This document shows positions 4,500-17,276 of a stretch of DNA of 64,000 bases, one piece after another. Source of the DNA: an uncultured Clostridia bacterium (GTDB taxonomy: Bacteria > Bacillota > Clostridia > Christensenellales > UBA1242); the NCBI GenBank assembly GCA_944332185.1, contig CALVJJ010000003.1, forward strand, positions 18,905 through 82,904, in the 5' to 3' direction. Under the pieces are notes generated by a model, which saw nothing but the letters and a program-made list of their open reading frames with translations, did no database searches and was not told the DNA's origin. Every line of letters starts with the position of its first letter. Position 1 is the first letter of the stretch. The position numbers and the translations under genes are program-made.

Positions 4500-5689
4500 A
4501 AAAATTTAGTATACTCATCTGTCTTTTGCTCCTAAGTTATATGATGATCACAGATCAAGCTAGATCACGGTACATATTTGCAGAAGACAATTTGGATCAA
4601 ATAGAACAAGAACTTACAGATAGTACGAATGAGAATCTAGATAAAATTGATTTTAGTAGTTTGGAAAATATTGTGTCTTCTTTAGAAGATGGATATAGTA
4701 TTTTTGGTTCTAGTTCTTTTAAAGACAAAGTGCAACAGATTATCAATGGTGAATATTTTGATCAATATGATACCTTGTTTGGAGCTATATTTGATCTAAT
4801 TAGTGATGGGGTGGTAAGTATTGTACCAACCATTATGATGATCGTTGCTCTTGCTGTTTTGTCTACGATTGTGTCCTCGATGCGATCAAGCAGTCAAAAA
4901 TCTATGGGATCGGTGATTGATTTTGTTTGTTATGGAGCAATGGTCATTATTGTAATGGGTGTGATGAAGAATATGCTGACAATGACCAAGACAACGCTAG
5001 ATATTATGCAAAGTCAAATACAAGCGTTGCTTCCTATACTTTTGACATTGCTTACTGCTGTTGGTGGTTTTGTATCAGCGTCTATTTATAAACCGATTGT
5101 AGTCTTATTAACCAGTGGTATGATGTTACTATTTGAAAAAGTCATGTTACCCATCGTAGTTCTTACTTTTGTATTTACTGTCATCGGGCACTTAAATCCT
5201 AATATCAAATTAAAAAAATTTGGAGATTTTTTAAGTAGTTTATTCAAATGGATTTTAGGGACAGTTTTTACACTATTTTCTGGCTTTTTAACTGTTCAAG
5301 GTATCAGTGCTGGGAAATATGATGGAATTAGTATTAAAGCCACAAAATTCGCTGTAAAAAGTTATATTCCTTTAATTGGTGGGTATTTAAGTGATGGATT
5401 GGATTTTATGGTGCTAAGTAGTGTTCTCATCAAAAATGCCATAGGTCTTTCAGGTTTGCTTTTAATGGTAATTACCATCTTATCTCCTATTATTCAACTG
5501 ATTATTGTAAAATTAGGATTTCAACTGGCAGCTAGCATTATAGAACCATTAGGTAATTCACAAATGACTTCCTTTATCTCTAGTTGTGCAAAATTATTGA
5601 TCTATCCTATTGTATTGATTTTAGGTATGGCATTCATGTATATCTTAACCATATCTCTTATGATGTGTACTGCCAATGTTTTAGGATAA
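4496..5689 (+). CDS. spoIIIAE: Stage III sporulation protein AE
   Basis: 397-aa polytopic membrane protein with a signal-like N-terminus, in the fifth operon position. Its ATGA start overlaps spoIIIAD. Confidence 0.88.
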   Translation: MKKFSILICLLLLSYMMITDQARSRYIFAEDNLDQIEQELTDSTNENLDKIDFSSLENIVSSLEDGYSIFGSSSFKDKVQQIINGEYFDQYDTLFGAIFDLISDGVVSIVPTIMMIVALAVLSTIVSSMRSSSQKSMGSVIDFVCYGAMVIIVMGVMKNMLTMTKTTLDIMQSQIQALLPILLTLLTAVGGFVSASIYKPIVVLLTSGMMLLFEKVMLPIVVLTFVFTVIGHLNPNIKLKKFGDFLSSLFKWILGTVFTLFSGFLTVQGISAGKYDGISIKATKFAVKSYIPLIGGYLSDGLDFMVLSSVLIKNAIGLSGLLLMVITILSPIIQLIIVKLGFQLAASIIEPLGNSQMTSFISSCAKLLIYPIVLILGMAFMYILTISLMMCTANVLG

Positions 5690-5698
5690 GAGGTGACT

Positions 5699-6163
5699 AT
5701 GACAGCATGGATATTGAGTATTGTCGGGATTGTTTTTGTGGGTATTATCTTTGATATGATTAGCCCAGAAGGAAAGTTGTCGACATTTATTAAAAGTATA
5801 TTTGCCATTATTACTTTATTTGTTATTGTGAGTCCTATTCCAAAATTATTGCAAAAAAAATGGAATTGGGATTGGAATTTTGAATGGTCAGATGAATATT
5901 TACAATCTGTGACTACGGGTAAAGTACTGTATTATCAAGATCAAATCCGTCAAAATCTTGAAAACATGGGGTATCAACAGGTAGATGTGCTAATAGAATG
6001 GAATCAAGAAAATTCGACACAAAACATGGAAAAAATCTATATAGATTTTACAAAATACGTTCTAAATGGTGGGGACAAGCATAAGATAGAGTATGAGAAG
6101 ATAGAAGAAATGATTGTAAAATTGATCAATATTGAAAAGGAGAATATTATTTTTTATGGTTGA
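5699..6163 (+). CDS. spoIIIAF: Stage III sporulation protein AF
   Basis: ATG at 5699 follows AAGAGGTG. It has two N-terminal TM helices (WILSIVGIVFVGIIFDMISP), as SpoIIIAF does. Confidence 0.75.
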   Translation: MTAWILSIVGIVFVGIIFDMISPEGKLSTFIKSIFAIITLFVIVSPIPKLLQKKWNWDWNFEWSDEYLQSVTTGKVLYYQDQIRQNLENMGYQQVDVLIEWNQENSTQNMEKIYIDFTKYVLNGGDKHKIEYEKIEEMIVKLINIEKENIIFYG

Positions 6164-6767
6164 AATTAGTTCTATCCAACAACAAAAAATTACGGCAAAT
6201 AACAAAGCTTCTCCTCCAAAGACAAAATGGAAAAATATAAATTTTCAAACAGTAAAAAAATATAAAAAAATAATCATTCCGTTACTGTTGTTGATGGTGT
6301 TGGGTTGTTTGTATTTATACATTACATCTTTTCAAGTTGTTAGTACCAACAATCAATCTTCTGAACTTTCTTACACTTCTGCTGTTGCTTATCAAAAAGA
6401 TCTAGAATCCCGATTGAAAAATATATTAAGCACGATAAAGGGAGCAGGAAAAGTAGAAGTAATGGTCACGATAGATGGCAGTCCAGAATTAAAATTCGCT
6501 ACTACAGTAGAAGAAAAAACAACCACAACCACTTCTGCTGGAGGTAGTGAAAACAAAACAGTGACCGTCATCACTGATCCAATTATTTTGAATGTCAATG
6601 GTAAAGAACAACCCTTAATCTTAATGGAAATTTTACCAAAAGTAAAAGGGGTTGTGGTAGTGGCAACGGGTGCAAATGATACAAAAATAAAATTACAAAT
6701 GATAGAAGCAGTACAAGCCTTATTAGATGTGGCAAGTGATAAAATTGATATATTAGAAGGTGAATAG
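6156..6767 (+). CDS. spoIIIAG: Stage III sporulation protein AG
   Basis: N-terminal TM helix and C-terminal VKGVVVVATGANDTKIKLQMIEAVQALLDV, the SpoIIIAG ring-domain signature. The start is uncertain (6132 TTG or 6156 ATG). Confidence 0.8.
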   Translation: MVEISSIQQQKITANNKASPPKTKWKNINFQTVKKYKKIIIPLLLLMVLGCLYLYITSFQVVSTNNQSSELSYTSAVAYQKDLESRLKNILSTIKGAGKVEVMVTIDGSPELKFATTVEEKTTTTTSAGGSENKTVTVITDPIILNVNGKEQPLILMEILPKVKGVVVVATGANDTKIKLQMIEAVQALLDVASDKIDILEGE

Positions 6768-13819: not shown

Positions 13820-15043
13820 ATGTTTACAAAAAAACGATGGTTATGGGGAGTTTGGATCATTGCTAGCGGTATATTCTTATGGATCAGTATGGCGATCCCA
13901 TATTCTTTATTGTCTATCTATGATGAAGATATTATTGTAACGACAAAAGAATTTCAAGACTATTTAAAACCTATTGGTTTTGTCTATCCTACTATTACGA
14001 CAGTAGTTGCGATAGATGAACAAAAAGATCAAGAAATTCAACAATATACAGTGGATTACAAATTATTTAATTTGTTTAATATATTATCCTTGAAAGTTGA
14101 TGTTGTAGAAGATAGGCAAGTGTATGCTGGAGGGAATGCTGTTGGGTTTGTGTTAGATACAAAAGGTGTGATTTTGGTAGGGAGTAATGGGATTATTACC
14201 AAAGATGGACTTGTAGATACCTTAAAAGATTCTCAGTTGCGTATTGGAGATGTTATTACAAAATTAAATGCTATTGAAGTCAACTCTATGGAAGATATTG
14301 CTACGGTATTACAAGTGCATTTAGATGGTAAAGCAATAGATGTAGAATACAAAAGAAATGGTCAAATACATTATACAACCATACAACCTGTACTTGATGA
14401 ATTAACAAAACAATACAAATTAGGACTTTGGGTTAAAGATAATGCAGTCGGAGTTGGAACTCTTACCTATGTCAAACAAAATCTGGAATATGGAGCATTG
14501 GGACATGCTATTACAGATGTCAATACCACTCAACCTATTGAGGTAATAGGTGGACAATTATATTTGGCTAACGTTGTAGGCGTCAAAAAGGGGGTAGAAG
14601 GCGTTCCGGGAGAATTGATGGGGTTATTTATCCAAGGTAAAGATGCTATTGGGAATATTGACAAAAATACCAATTATGGGGTATATGGTAATATTTTAGA
14701 GAATAGTAGTTTTCTAGAAAAGAAGGCTCTTATACCTTTAGGAAGTCGTAGCCAAGCCAAACCCGGTAAGGCAAAAATTCTAACTTGTATCGATGGAGAA
14801 AATATTGAAGCCTTTGATGTGGAAATTATAAAAACTAATTATCAAGCAAGTGCAACAGAAAAAAGCATGATTATTAAGGTCACGGACAAGGAATTACTAG
14901 AACGCACAGGAGGGATTGTGCAAGGTATGAGTGGAAGTCCAATTATTCAAGAAGGAAAATTGATTGGAGCTGTAACACATGTGTTTGTCAGTGATCCTAC
15001 CAAAGGATTTGGGTTATATATTGATTGGATGCTATCAGCTTAA
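13820..15043 (+). CDS. spoIVB: SpoIVB signalling serine peptidase (S55)
   Basis: 407 aa with an N-terminal TM helix, a PDZ-like segment (GDVITKLNAIEVNSMEDI) and the catalytic Ser motif GMSGSPII. It follows recN, the conserved position. Confidence 0.9.
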   Translation: MFTKKRWLWGVWIIASGIFLWISMAIPYSLLSIYDEDIIVTTKEFQDYLKPIGFVYPTITTVVAIDEQKDQEIQQYTVDYKLFNLFNILSLKVDVVEDRQVYAGGNAVGFVLDTKGVILVGSNGIITKDGLVDTLKDSQLRIGDVITKLNAIEVNSMEDIATVLQVHLDGKAIDVEYKRNGQIHYTTIQPVLDELTKQYKLGLWVKDNAVGVGTLTYVKQNLEYGALGHAITDVNTTQPIEVIGGQLYLANVVGVKKGVEGVPGELMGLFIQGKDAIGNIDKNTNYGVYGNILENSSFLEKKALIPLGSRSQAKPGKAKILTCIDGENIEAFDVEIIKTNYQASATEKSMIIKVTDKELLERTGGIVQGMSGSPIIQEGKLIGAVTHVFVSDPTKGFGLYIDWMLSA

Positions 15044-15044
15044 A

Positions 15045-15069
15045 AAAGAACATTTTTGTTCTTTTTTTT
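15045..15069 (+). terminator. Intrinsic terminator after spoIVB
   Basis: Stem AAAGAAC / GTTCTTT with a 6-nt loop, then a T-run. Confidence 0.8.
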
Positions 15070-15085
15070 ATTTTTTTAGTAGTGC

Positions 15086-15113
15086 TTGACAACAAATTCG
15101 ACAATGGTCGACA
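15086..15113 (+). promoter_or_regulatory. TTGACA followed by two tandem Spo0A-box-like motifs
   Basis: TTGACA lies at 15086-15091. TTCGACA at 15097-15103 is the exact complement of the 0A box TGTCGAA, and GTCGACA at 15107-15113 matches 6/7. The two boxes are one helical turn apart. A 7-mer like this is expected several times by chance in 64 kb. Confidence 0.4.
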
Positions 15114-15210
15114 GTGAGGCAAAGGAATTATCATGTTTTTAAATGGTTTTTTTTGTAAATTTTCGTAGGTTTTGGTATGATTATATTGTATTTTAAATAA
15201 GGAGTGGAAA

Positions 15211-15594
15211 ATGAGTAGTGAACTAAAATGTTTGGCAAGTCAAGCAAAAAGAAGATTAAAAAATGCGGCTGAAAGTTCTTCAGGAAAATACACACGGATC
15301 AATCATATTGACAAATCGACCTATTTTTATAAAAATATGGCTATGTTACATAGAAAAGTAGGTGATGTCGAATTTGTGATGATTGACGATAAAGAAGATG
15401 AAAATTTTATACGAAAGGTAGAAAAAGTTGTATTAGAAGATAACTTACTCAATCCAATGAGTAAACTAATTGATCAAAAAATTTTTAGTACATTATCTGC
15501 AACAGAGCAACAGATGTATTTGTTAAAACTATTTGATCGATATAATAAGGTACGAGAAAAAATTGTAAAAGAAAACATGCAAACTATTTTGTAA
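15211..15594 (+). CDS. Hypothetical 127-aa protein between spoIVB and spo0A
   Basis: Strong SD AAGGAG 6 nt before the ATG. Charged, helical-looking sequence with no recognisable motif. Confidence 0.6.
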   Translation: MSSELKCLASQAKRRLKNAAESSSGKYTRINHIDKSTYFYKNMAMLHRKVGDVEFVMIDDKEDENFIRKVEKVVLEDNLLNPMSKLIDQKIFSTLSATEQQMYLLKLFDRYNKVREKIVKENMQTIL

Positions 15595-15724
15595 AAAATA
15601 ATTTGTAAAAAAAGAAAAAATATGTTAAAAATGATTTTTTTATTTTAAAATTTGTGAAATAAAGGGGGGAATAAATTGTTTTTAACATAATTTTTAAAAA
15701 TTTTATATTTTTTTACAAAAATAC

Positions 15725-15753
15725 TTGATTTTTGTAAAATATATTAGTATACT
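15725..15753 (+). promoter_or_regulatory. Sigma-A-like promoter upstream of the spo0A-like gene
   Basis: TTGATT at 15725-15730, a 17-bp spacer, then TATACT at 15748-15753. The AT-rich context makes chance matches likely. Confidence 0.4.
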
Positions 15754-15786
15754 GATACTAGAAATAAAACAAAAAAGGGAAAAACT

Positions 15787-16530
15787 ATGCCGACGAATGA
15801 ACAAAATATCACAAGAAATGCTATTTTTTATTCTCAACACAATGTTATGTTATACAACGACTTAAAAAGACAATGTAATGCAGAAAAGATCAATGTTATG
15901 ATTGCAGACAATCTGGGGACTTTGATGAATATTGTATATGGGGTGGATTTTTCTATCATCTTTATTGATGCAAAAACAAAGAAGTTAGATGAAGATTTTT
16001 TAAGTTTGTTAAGTCGTTGTGATAGAGTGTGTCAAGGGCTATCTATTATTATTGATGGTAAAGAAAACTATGAACATATAGCGCCTACCATTTTTTCTAT
16101 GACTGCTAGTGAGGTAATGTGTAAGATTCCAGATATCAAGAGAAGTGTAAAATTATTGGAATCTGCTACTTACAAAAACAATCATCATAGAGAACAAGAA
16201 GTGAAAGATGGGGATATTACGAATATGCTCGTAGAATACGGTTTTGATATAAAACTAGATGGTTTCAAATACATAAAGTCAGTTATTATGTTGTTTTTAA
16301 CGAATTTTGAAATAGCTACGCCTTTAAGCAGAAGTGCATATCCAATTGTAGCATCTATCTATAATACAAAACCTGAAAATGTCGAACGTAACATTCGTAA
16401 TGCCATTAAAGTTGCAACAAAATCTGAAAAATTCCAACAAAAATTAAAAAATGTTTTAAGTTCCAATCCTACTAATTTACAAGTTATCAATTATTTTGTA
16501 GCAATACAAAGGGGGAAAACTGTCATTTAG
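15787..16530 (+). CDS. spo0A: Spo0A-family regulator with a divergent (pseudo-)receiver domain
   Basis: The C-terminal 105 aa align by eye with the Spo0A_C domain ([55 protein letters not shown]). It lies downstream of spoIVB. The N-terminal 125 aa look like a (beta-alpha)5 fold but lack most receiver signature residues. Confidence 0.8.
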   Translation: [247 protein letters not shown]

Positions 16531-16549
16531 ACGTTCTTTGTTTAAAATG

Positions 16550-16577
16550 AGAGCAATAAAAAATTGCTCTTTTTTTA
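16550..16577 (+). terminator. Intrinsic terminator after spo0A
   Basis: Stem AGAGCAAT / ATTGCTCT with an AAAAA loop, then a T-run. Confidence 0.85.
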
Positions 16578-16646: not shown

Positions 16647-17276
16647 ATGAATGCAAATTATCAAAGAGTTCAATTAAAAGGGAAAAGTTGGCTAGGCAAA
16701 TTCTTTAGATTCTATCGTGGTTGGTTACTTTTTTTTGGAATACTCGCACTACTTGCATTCGTAACAGGTATTTTAACAGTATCTAAAGTAAGTGATGACC
16801 TTGAATTAGACAAATTACCAAGCAAAGCCATCATTGTGCTATTTGAAGATCCCAAAAATAATTGGGGATATTTTATACAACAATTATTATCTTTTTTTTA
16901 TATTATTGCCATTGTATTATTGTGCAACTTTCACCCTTGTATGATATGGGTGGATATCTTAATTGTCTTATATCACTTTTATTGTTTTGGGTTTTGTTTT
17001 TTAGGAATTATTCTCCTATATAGTGTTGCAGGTTTTTTTAATTTACTTCTTTTTATATTGCCATTTTTTCTACTTTATAGTTTTATTATTTTATTACTTG
17101 TTTGTATATGTGTAAAAAGGTGTATTTTAAAAAGAAAATATGGAAGTGTTTGTTCTCCTACATTTTCCTATAAAGAATTGCAAGCGATGGTATGGGTATT
17201 GGTAGTCAGTTTGTTGCTTATTTTATTATTGCAAACATTACTTATTCCTATTATTTCTATTACAATCATTGTATAG
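16647..17276 (+). CDS. Polytopic membrane protein, possibly SpoIIM-like
   Basis: 209 aa with a GAGTGGAG SD, a short cytoplasmic N-terminus and then about 5 TM helices. Size and topology resemble SpoIIM, but the sequence match could not be verified. Confidence 0.45.
   Translation: MNANYQRVQLKGKSWLGKFFRFYRGWLLFFGILALLAFVTGILTVSKVSDDLELDKLPSKAIIVLFEDPKNNWGYFIQQLLSFFYIIAIVLLCNFHPCMIWVDILIVLYHFYCFGFCFLGIILLYSVAGFFNLLLFILPFFLLYSFIILLLVCICVKRCILKRKYGSVCSPTFSYKELQAMVWVLVVSLLLILLLQTLLIPIISITIIV

Follow-up and report, generated by a model that had tools for sequence, protein, structure and literature searches.

A conserved gene of an unannotated small-protein family between spoIVB and an atypical spo0A, behind tandem 0A-like boxes, in an uncultured Clostridia bacterium

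Spo0A and its autoregulated locus serve as the model case of how a cell commits itself to endospore formation, and the junction between spoIVB and spo0A is among the most conserved gene orders of endospore formers. In a 64-kb stretch of DNA from an uncultured Clostridia bacterium (31% GC; hereafter the window), this junction is occupied by an additional gene. It encodes a protein of 127 amino acids (aa), which we call ORF127 (for open reading frame), and it is preceded by two 0A-like boxes in tandem. We propose with moderate confidence, from comparison of the locus across lineages, that a distal transcript of the spo0A locus, which Spo0A itself would regulate, begins with ORF127 as its first cistron, and ORF127 is probably switched by Spo0A.

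The closest described system is the spo0A locus of Bacillus subtilis, in which autoregulation through 0A boxes and two promoters is established (PMC12090719); in Clostridioides difficile, Spo0A also binds upstream of spo0A (PMC3485338). Like the locus of B. subtilis, with its distal sigma-A promoter Pv and its proximal sigma-H promoter Ps, the locus described here lies downstream of spoIVB and combines 0A boxes with a candidate distal and a candidate proximal promoter, and the regulator resembles those of both species in its intact DNA-binding domain. The distal promoter Pv is comparable to that of the transcript proposed here. The differences from B. subtilis are nevertheless considerable: the distal promoter is separated from spo0A by the gene for a 127-aa protein, the boxes precede the distal promoter instead of lying between the two promoters, the proximal promoter looks sigma-A-like and not sigma-H-like, and the regulator carries a predicted pseudo-receiver.

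ORF127 has orthologues in the same slot, between spoIVB and a Spo0A-like gene, at four other loci (L001, L008, L011, and L017), which together with the window make up five lineages of uncultured Clostridia of the gut type, three of them close to one another. Their identity to the window protein is 80, 78, 80, and 64%, respectively; the frame is intact in all five lineages at 127 aa (124 aa in L017), with the Shine-Dalgarno sequence and the start codon kept, and at least 23 contigs, from many different samples, encode the identical protein. Within the group of the four closest lineages, the ratio of nonsynonymous to synonymous divergence (dN/dS) is 0.03-0.11 while synonymous differences are near saturation (proportion of differing synonymous sites, pS, 0.4-0.7), and the constraint therefore acts on the protein and not on the DNA. 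When the window is compared with the three lineages of the L001 group, ORF127 (78-80% identity) surpasses most of its neighbours in conservation, including SpoIVB (69-71%), RecN (67-68%), a 209-aa membrane protein (62%), and the Spo0A-like protein (55-60%), with ArgR higher (85-87%). Conservation is strongest in residues 1-56, which are almost invariant in four lineages (dN 0.04, versus about 0.2 for the C-terminal half). Judged by these signatures, ORF127 is a true coding gene on whose protein purifying selection acts strongly. A preliminary description of the locus, made from the letters alone, had proposed a well-formed extra gene in the spoIVB-spo0A interval and had pointed to close relatives as the place where it might prove absent or unconserved. 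The same-slot orthologues bear out the gene and show it present, at 64-80% identity, in four lineages, and its status as an addition is supported by L012, a deeper relative of the locus with a Spo0A-like protein only ~30% identical, in which spo0A follows spoIVB directly with no open reading frame between them.

Upstream of ORF127, the two boxes (A and B) stand head to tail on the minus strand, 10 bp apart from centre to centre. A lone box tells little, as the preliminary description had itself cautioned: where 3.8 exact copies of TGTCGAA would be expected in the window, 11 are present, a number reached by none of 100 shuffles, and 10 of the 11 copies lie in coding DNA. The coding copies include one at 15366, inside ORF127, and one at 16380, in the spo0A codons for the NVER recognition helix; the former was set aside as a Spo0A site, being in coding DNA and reading CGTCGAA in L001. 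The arrangement is much rarer than the word. TGTCG-N5-TGTCG is found once on both strands of the 64 kb and in none of 100 dinucleotide-preserving shuffles, with an expectation of ~0.007 per window in a Markov-2 simulation, and the box at 15097 is the only intergenic one among 21 TGNCGAA matches in the window.

Comparison of the relatives shows which positions of the boxes are kept. The minus strand reads CTGTCGAC-CAT-TGTCGAA in the window, CTGTCGAC-TAT-TGTCGGT in L001, CTGTCGAC-TAT-TGTCGTT in L008, and CTGTCGAG-TAT-TGTCGGT in L011. In these four lineages the TGTCG(A) cores are invariant and positions 6-7 drift; box A keeps TGTCGA throughout and ends in C or G. The core of box B is invariant in all five lineages (CGACAAT on the plus strand), L017 having a perfect TGTCGAA. 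These invariant positions coincide with G2, C4, and G5 of TGTCGAA, the bases with which Spo0A makes base-specific contacts (PMC3485338). A 0A box is also present 3' of the spoIVB stop codon in L012 (TGACGAA, without ORF127) and in L013 (TGTCGAA), a locus that carries the closest outgroup relative of ORF127 (GCA_947629745.1), and the operator thus probably predates the insertion. In the protein family to which ORF127 belongs (family X, described below), the upstream regions of the members linked to pcrA contain no 0A boxes, the sole TGTCGA/TCGACA being the rpsU terminator stem in L015; the boxes accordingly belong to the spoIVB/spo0A locus and not to the gene family. Since the spacer between ORF127 and spo0A (15592-15790) lacks any CG dinucleotide, 0A sites at the spo0A locus can exist only upstream of ORF127, where the boxes lie.

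The arrangement itself has a precedent, which we take to be that of the abrB tandem boxes and of the complex of the Spo0A C domain with DNA (1LQ1): two 7-bp boxes head to tail with a 3-bp spacer, as here. The present boxes differ from these in the last base of box A, which is C or G, in the degeneracy of box B at positions 6-7 in the relatives, and in being predicted sites. A reading of the boxes as a hairpin (TCGAC-N4-GTCGA, resembling a terminator on the minus strand) was rejected, as L001, L008, and L011 lose the inverted symmetry and keep the direct repeat. The tandem of 0A-like boxes noticed at the outset has thus held up, being unique in the window, with TGTCG cores invariant in four lineages and one box in the fifth, and control of ORF127 by Spo0A through these conserved boxes is plausible.

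Between the boxes and ORF127 lies a candidate distal promoter, P1, of the sigma-A type with an extended -10 element. Its counterparts read TTGTCA-18-TGaTATGAT in L001, L008, and L011 (TATCAT in L008) and TTGAAA-17-TATGAT in L017, and the -10 is kept in each of the five lineages. Box B and the P1 -10 stand 77, 78, 78, 78, and 88 bp apart in these lineages, so that helical phase is kept. The separate spo0A promoter suggested in the preliminary description was recovered by the promoter scan as P2; its hexamers and spacing are identical in L017, and alignment by eye gives TTGTTT or TTGTGT-17-TATCCT, TATTCT or TATGCT in L001, L008, and L011. A terminator scan between ORF127 and spo0A found none in the window, L001 or L017. 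Ahead of the boxes, spoIVB ends in an intrinsic terminator of its own, whose predicted fold (-9.8 kcal/mol, z=-4.4) was equalled by none of 200 shuffles, whose stem changes in a compensatory manner across lineages (GAACA/TGTTC, GGACA/TGTCC, GTGACA/TGTCAC), and which has equivalents detected in L001 and L017.

Other candidate promoter elements in this region were discarded. The TTGACA hexamer to which the preliminary description had drawn attention did not survive comparison: the relatives L001, L008, and L011 have CTGATA, TTGATA or ACTACA in its place, the promoter scan finds no -10 partner for it, and it was rejected as a -35 element. A sigma-H promoter upstream of ORF127 was likewise rejected, because AAAGGAATT at 15121 resembles a -35 but is unconserved in the relatives and has no GAAT -10. 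At P2, the alignments show no conserved AGGA...GAAT motif of the sigma-H type, and the hexamers are of the sigma-A type.

The gene downstream of ORF127 encodes a Spo0A-like protein in which only the Spo0A C-terminal domain is recognised; its score against TIGR02875 is 51 bits (cutoff 200), so it is not a canonical equivalog, and no Response_reg match is found in Pfam. The recognition helix reads NVERNIRNAIKVA, compared with RVERAIRHAIEVA in 1FC3/1LQ1, and the segment NVERNIRNAI, which aligns to RVERAIRHAI of these two structures, is invariant in the clade. In an AlphaFold2 (AF2) model with a predicted local distance difference test score (pLDDT) of 78, the C domain superposes on 1LQ1 with a template-modelling (TM) score of 0.80-0.82 and a root-mean-square deviation of 2.0-2.3 Å, and the N-terminal alpha/beta domain matches response-regulator receivers and the pseudo-receiver of KaiA. 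Of the five active-site residues of receivers (DD, D, T/S, K), as defined in bioRxiv 10.1101/2025.06.23.661182, one is kept, D61 at the phospho-acceptor position; in place of the DD pair there is an invariant Y15-S16, and neither the T/S nor the K position shows conservation. Sequence and model together indicate that the neighbour is a Spo0A homologue with an intact DNA-binding domain and a pseudo-receiver, for which canonical phosphorylation seems unlikely. The Spo0A-like protein of L012 has the same YS...D type of pseudo-receiver with no adjacent ORF127. This gene is also the fastest-evolving of the neighbourhood, with 33% identity to L017 and, at the 55-60% given above, well below the ~70% of SpoIVB.

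Some side observations on the Spo0A-like proteins may be recorded here. In L001 (6495-7292) and L011 (5001-5795), gene callers add an N-terminal extension of 18 residues (264-265 aa in all), and the alignment suggests a start equivalent to window position 15787. A metagenome scan with the Spo0A-like alignment retrieved only a separate high-GC group of Spo0A-like proteins (L023-L030, on JGI/ENA contigs), with recognition helix TTPENVERNMRTAI and the phospho-acceptor Asp apparently replaced (..VVLGLA..); neither spoIVB nor a homologue of family X is nearby in this group.

Taken together, these features suggest the following mechanism. A copy of a family X gene would have come to lie downstream of spoIVB, inside what is the upstream control region of spo0A in the relatives, and the locus would now consist of the spoIVB terminator, a tandem 0A operator, P1, ORF127, P2, spo0A, and a terminator. 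The Spo0A-like protein would occupy both boxes in tandem, on the same face of the helix and ~45 bp ahead of the P1 -35, and would thereby modulate P1. Transcription from P1 would cover ORF127 and, because no terminator intervenes, would read through into spo0A to give an autoregulatory distal transcript, while P2 would give Spo0A-independent (box-independent) expression of spo0A. In this scheme Spo0A binding to the boxes and co-transcription are inferred, as are the direction of the regulation and what ORF127 does biochemically.

Several points weigh against this mechanism. Box A is degenerate in L017 (TGTAGGA). Promoter-like hexamer pairs are no commoner in this 31% GC DNA than in shuffles (19 versus 17.7 expected), so that it is conservation that carries the P1 and P2 calls, and this conservation covers only the five lineages, among them three close relatives. 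The boxes lie ~75-91 bp upstream of the start site deduced for P1, whereas those of B. subtilis lie between its two promoters, and owing to this difference in geometry the sign of regulation cannot be read from the layout. As modelled, the pseudo-receiver does not assure that the Spo0A-like protein would dimerise on tandem boxes. Since P2 is conserved, spo0A may be independent of read-through. Finally, the structural model of ORF127 (below) is of only moderate confidence and gives no function.

As for the protein itself, ORF127 is soluble and matches no Pfam or NCBIfam family, a scan of 38 of its relatives against the same libraries gave no match, and neither ORF127 nor the family members have a credible match in PHROGs. 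The earlier statement that it has no recognisable family therefore holds for curated libraries, but not for sequences at large. A word-indexed search found only the two closest clusters; the remote homology search that had been recommended, an exhaustive run of HMMER over 1.84 billion representatives, yielded 83 proteins at E<=1e-3 (13 of them at E<=1e-10), each representing a cluster at 50% identity. Members of this family X have lengths of 59-164 aa, for the most part 100-140 aa, and in the majority the match spans most of the protein; their source names are 'hypothetical protein' only, from metagenome-assembled genomes (MAGs) of Firmicutes or Clostridia. The family alignment consists of an N-terminal helix (LKxLAxxAKxRLKxGxY, with R15 invariant), a variable middle, and a C-terminal module (DxxFxxKV...NPIGxLxD...L...EKQxYILxLxEKYNKxKE, with Y103 invariant), and residues A9, A12, K13, V70, L86, and D88 are at least 90% conserved. 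The two halves are of opposite character, the N-terminal one basic (isoelectric point 9.8 in ORF127, family median 10.1) and the C-terminal one acidic (5.4 and 5.2). An AF2 model of ORF127 built with 25 homologues is all-helical (helices 2-23, 36-49, 64-75, 82-86, 89-94, and 97-126), with a mean pLDDT of 73 and a predicted TM score (pTM) of 0.44, and is best over residues 61-120 (mostly 80-92). A Foldseek search with this model gave no significant match in PDB or BFVD, and a sequence-profile search of PDB with the family gave nothing below E=0.17. A Spo0E-like reading of the N-terminal 'SSELK' was rejected because the motif is not kept across the family.

The usual position of family X genes is a different one. 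All five distant members that were looked up (in L015, L018, L019, L021, and L022) have a UvrD/PcrA helicase gene as their immediate downstream neighbour, in the same orientation. The order is rpsU-X-pcrA in L015, L018, and L021, with ligA next in L018 and L021, and X-pcrA in L019 and L022 (confirmed by Pfam in L022); overall, rpsU precedes X in four of the five. Such pcrA-linked members (for example P0009, P0010, P0033, and P0047) resemble ORF127 over most of its length (E 7e-17 to 2.5e-5) and share with it their size, the N-terminal LKxLAxxAKxRLK helix, the C-terminal NPIGxLxD...EKQxYILxLxEKYNK module, and the basic and acidic halves; they differ in lying before pcrA without upstream 0A boxes, whereas ORF127 lies after spoIVB and before spo0A, with boxes. 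ORF127 and the members in L001, L008, L011, L017, and L013 all follow spoIVB and are not directly upstream of pcrA, and no pcrA is found within the window. The closest outgroup to ORF127, P0008 of L013 (E=2e-18), follows spoIVB with no spo0A adjacent; the order there is spoIVB, a perfect TGTCGAA box, the X homologue, six minus-strand tRNA genes, and spoIIAA-spoIIAB-sigF (4600-6700). Beside this, the ~8-kb block from spo0A to plsC that in the window parts X from the tRNA genes and the spoIIA operon is absent at this position in L013. As the distant members looked up are all linked to pcrA, ORF127 looks like a relocated copy. Family X, as sequence and gene order present it, is a family of unannotated small helical proteins of uncultured low-GC Clostridia, normally encoded just upstream of pcrA, and the parsimonious history would be that a pcrA-linked member moved to a site 3' of spoIVB and ahead of spo0A. 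Our best guess for ORF127 is that it acts as a small adaptor for nucleic acid or protein, made up of a basic helix and an acidic helical module, with an ancestral role unrelated to Spo0A and possibly connected with PcrA; the promoter under Spo0A control would then have captured its expression in this clade.

Three other explanations of the locus deserve consideration. If ORF127 were non-functional, whether as a fortuitous frame or as a relic decaying within an AT-rich spacer, the lack of a curated family and of a structural match would be natural; but a frame kept intact in five lineages with its Shine-Dalgarno sequence and start codon, the low dN/dS, and a family of 83 clusters leave this reading hardly any probability, and the conservation data, as far as sequences can, have effectively refuted it. 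More serious is the suggestion that the boxes are not Spo0A sites, the CGACAAT-N3-CGACAG repeat binding some other regulator or being conserved for a reason to do with the 3' end of spoIVB. Candidates would be a SpoIIID-like protein or another response regulator that reads direct repeats spaced by one turn of the helix, and ORF127 would then be a relocated housekeeping gene with a constitutive promoter. Indeed, TTCGACAA fits 7 of 8 positions of the SpoIIID-type consensus, which we take to be WWRRACAR-Y; box B is TGTCGGT or TGTCGTT instead of the full TGTCGAA in three of four close lineages; the excess of TGTCGAA in coding DNA implies that the composition of the window favours the word; and a position so far upstream of P1 is atypical by the standard of B. 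subtilis spo0A. Yet what has stayed invariant in the boxes is the TGTCG core with the contact bases, their head-to-tail order with a 3-bp spacer is presumably that of the known Spo0A tandem sites (abrB, the 1LQ1 lattice), a box downstream of spoIVB recurs in L012 and L013 in differing sequence contexts, and the absence of boxes from the pcrA-linked members ties them to the spoIVB/spo0A locus. On balance we consider it unlikely that the boxes serve something other than Spo0A.

The third explanation concerns not the boxes but the protein. The preliminary description had regarded ORF127 as a possible Spo0A-controlled partner of the atypical Spo0A, and the two halves of this idea have fared differently: control is plausible, given the conserved boxes and the intact C domain, but partnership is unsupported by gene context. 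In its strong form, ORF127 would be a dedicated regulator (an activator, an anti-activator or a phosphorelay surrogate) that binds the pseudo-receiver of Spo0A and is kept adjacent for co-expression, so that control would be independent of phosphorylation. The attraction of this is evident, since a receiver with one of its five active-site residues left needs a non-phosphoryl input, while ORF127 adjoins spo0A in five lineages with co-transcription likely in the absence of a terminator between them, is unusually conserved in its first 56 residues, and, if under 0A-box control as is probable, would close a feedback loop. The wider family nevertheless speaks for another origin: the distant members adjoin pcrA and not spo0A in five of five cases, the outgroup member of L013 sits after spoIVB with spo0A elsewhere than next to it, and L012 manages its pseudo-receiver without an adjacent ORF127. 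The YF(Y/I)KN segment, the most strongly conserved in ORF127, is present in the pcrA-linked P0009 and P0010 as well and is thus not a Spo0A-specific innovation, and the contrast between a fast Spo0A-like protein and a nearly frozen ORF127 argues against tight co-evolution.

Known small proteins of sporulation initiation offer a further comparison. The Spo0E/YnzD/YisI phosphatases, Sda, KipI, and SinI are small and helical and belong to the same context as ORF127, but ORF127 has no Pfam similarity to the Spo0E, Sda, SinI or Kip families, nor any other sequence or profile similarity to such proteins in Pfam or NCBIfam, and family X keeps no SQELD-type motif; moreover, these proteins act on phosphorylation, whereas the Spo0A here is probably not phosphorylated canonically. 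A dedicated partnership is therefore improbable in our estimation. Equally speculative is the extension of it in which ORF127, captured from the pcrA locus under 0A-box control, has become the protein input that switches on or off a Spo0A that has lost its phospho-chemistry; if true, this would be a phosphorelay-free feedback circuit for sporulation initiation based on a protein partner.

The features of the locus are collected in Table 1. The positions given in the preliminary description for the TTGACA hexamer, the two boxes (read there on the plus strand as TTCGACA and GTCGACA), the AAGGAG sequence, and the ATG, like the length of 127 aa, were all found to be correct.

Table 1. Features of the spoIVB-ORF127-spo0A locus, in window coordinates.
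Feature	Position	Strand	Remarks
spoIVB (S55 peptidase), upstream gene of ORF127	13820..15043	+	PF05580 E=1e-80; TIGR02860 387 bits, cutoff 305
spoIVB intrinsic terminator	15042..15075	+	11-bp stem 15042-15067, then T-run
TTGACA hexamer of the preliminary description	15086..15091	+	probably chance
0A box B, TGTCGAA	15097..15103	-	exact consensus match
0A box A, TGTCGAC	15107..15113	-	6/7 consensus match; 3 bp from box B
Conserved block (A/T)TCATnTTTTT between boxes and P1 -35	15130..15140	+	mostly kept in the five-lineage alignment (L001, L008, L011, L017)
Candidate distal promoter P1, sigma-A type, extended -10	15153..15181	+	TTGTAA 15153-15158, 17 bp, TG 15173-15174, one base, TATGAT 15176-15181
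Shine-Dalgarno sequence AAGGAG	15199..15204	+	6 nt before ATG; GGAGG at the matching position in relatives
ORF127	15211..15594	+	127 aa; ATG 15211, stop 15592-15594
TTTGTAAAA motif cluster in ORF127-spo0A spacer	15588..15739		copies at 15588, 15602, 15711 (minus strand), 15731
Candidate proximal spo0A promoter P2, TTGATT-17-TATACT	15725..15753	+	promoter scan match
Spo0A-like regulator, 247 aa	15787..16530	+	PF08769 E=1e-17
Terminator closing the ORF127-spo0A unit	16549..16571	+	intrinsic; equivalents 3' of spo0A in L001, L017

The spacer between ORF127 and spo0A contains one more recurrent element. Of the ten exact copies of TTTGTAAAA(AA) in the window, four lie upstream of spo0A within a stretch of 150 bp, and the motif recurs two to four times, in either orientation, near spo0A in L001 (6429-6472), L008 (4883-4925), L011 (4937-4978), L017 (4410-4503), and L012 (3404-3528). 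The cluster may be a site for a regulator or a set of reiterated -35-like elements. The same spacer contains, at 15649-15690 of the window, a lineage-specific insertion of ~23 bp that includes AAAGGGGGGAATAAATTG; this resembles a Shine-Dalgarno sequence with a TTG start, yet the frame after it has only four codons.

Around the locus, the gene order in the window is xseA-xseB-proS-argR-recN-spoIVB-ORF127-spo0A-(209-aa membrane protein)-dacB...ytfJ. The multi-pass membrane protein of 209 aa (16647-17276) belongs to no Pfam or NCBIfam family. It is found 3' of the Spo0A-like gene in L001, L008, L011, L012, and L017 too and, being present even in the distant L012, is a steadier neighbour of that gene than ORF127. 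There is no rRNA gene within the window. The organism is represented solely by MAGs and metagenome contigs (for example GCA_949296045.1). A GTDB scan with the orthologue alignment matched a single species representative, labelled 'MAG: Clostridia bacterium', and a scan of JGI metagenomes with the same alignment gave no match.

Our literature searches found nothing on a conserved cistron that stands in a spo0A leader, preceded by a tandem 0A operator and adjacent to a pseudo-receiver Spo0A, and to our knowledge the architecture of this locus is undescribed, although its component parts are of known kinds. What makes it of interest is the coincidence of a gene from an uncharacterised family placed behind a 0A operator, a Spo0A that is unlikely to be phosphorylated canonically, and the strong conservation of that operator. 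The analysis also defines a family of small proteins, comprising ~83 clusters with linkage to pcrA, that had no annotation in the databases. Even if ORF127 is only a passenger, it would still be an example of operon capture by the promoter of a master regulator, and the locus offers a testable case of how sporulation may be initiated in uncultured, reduced, low-GC Clostridia.

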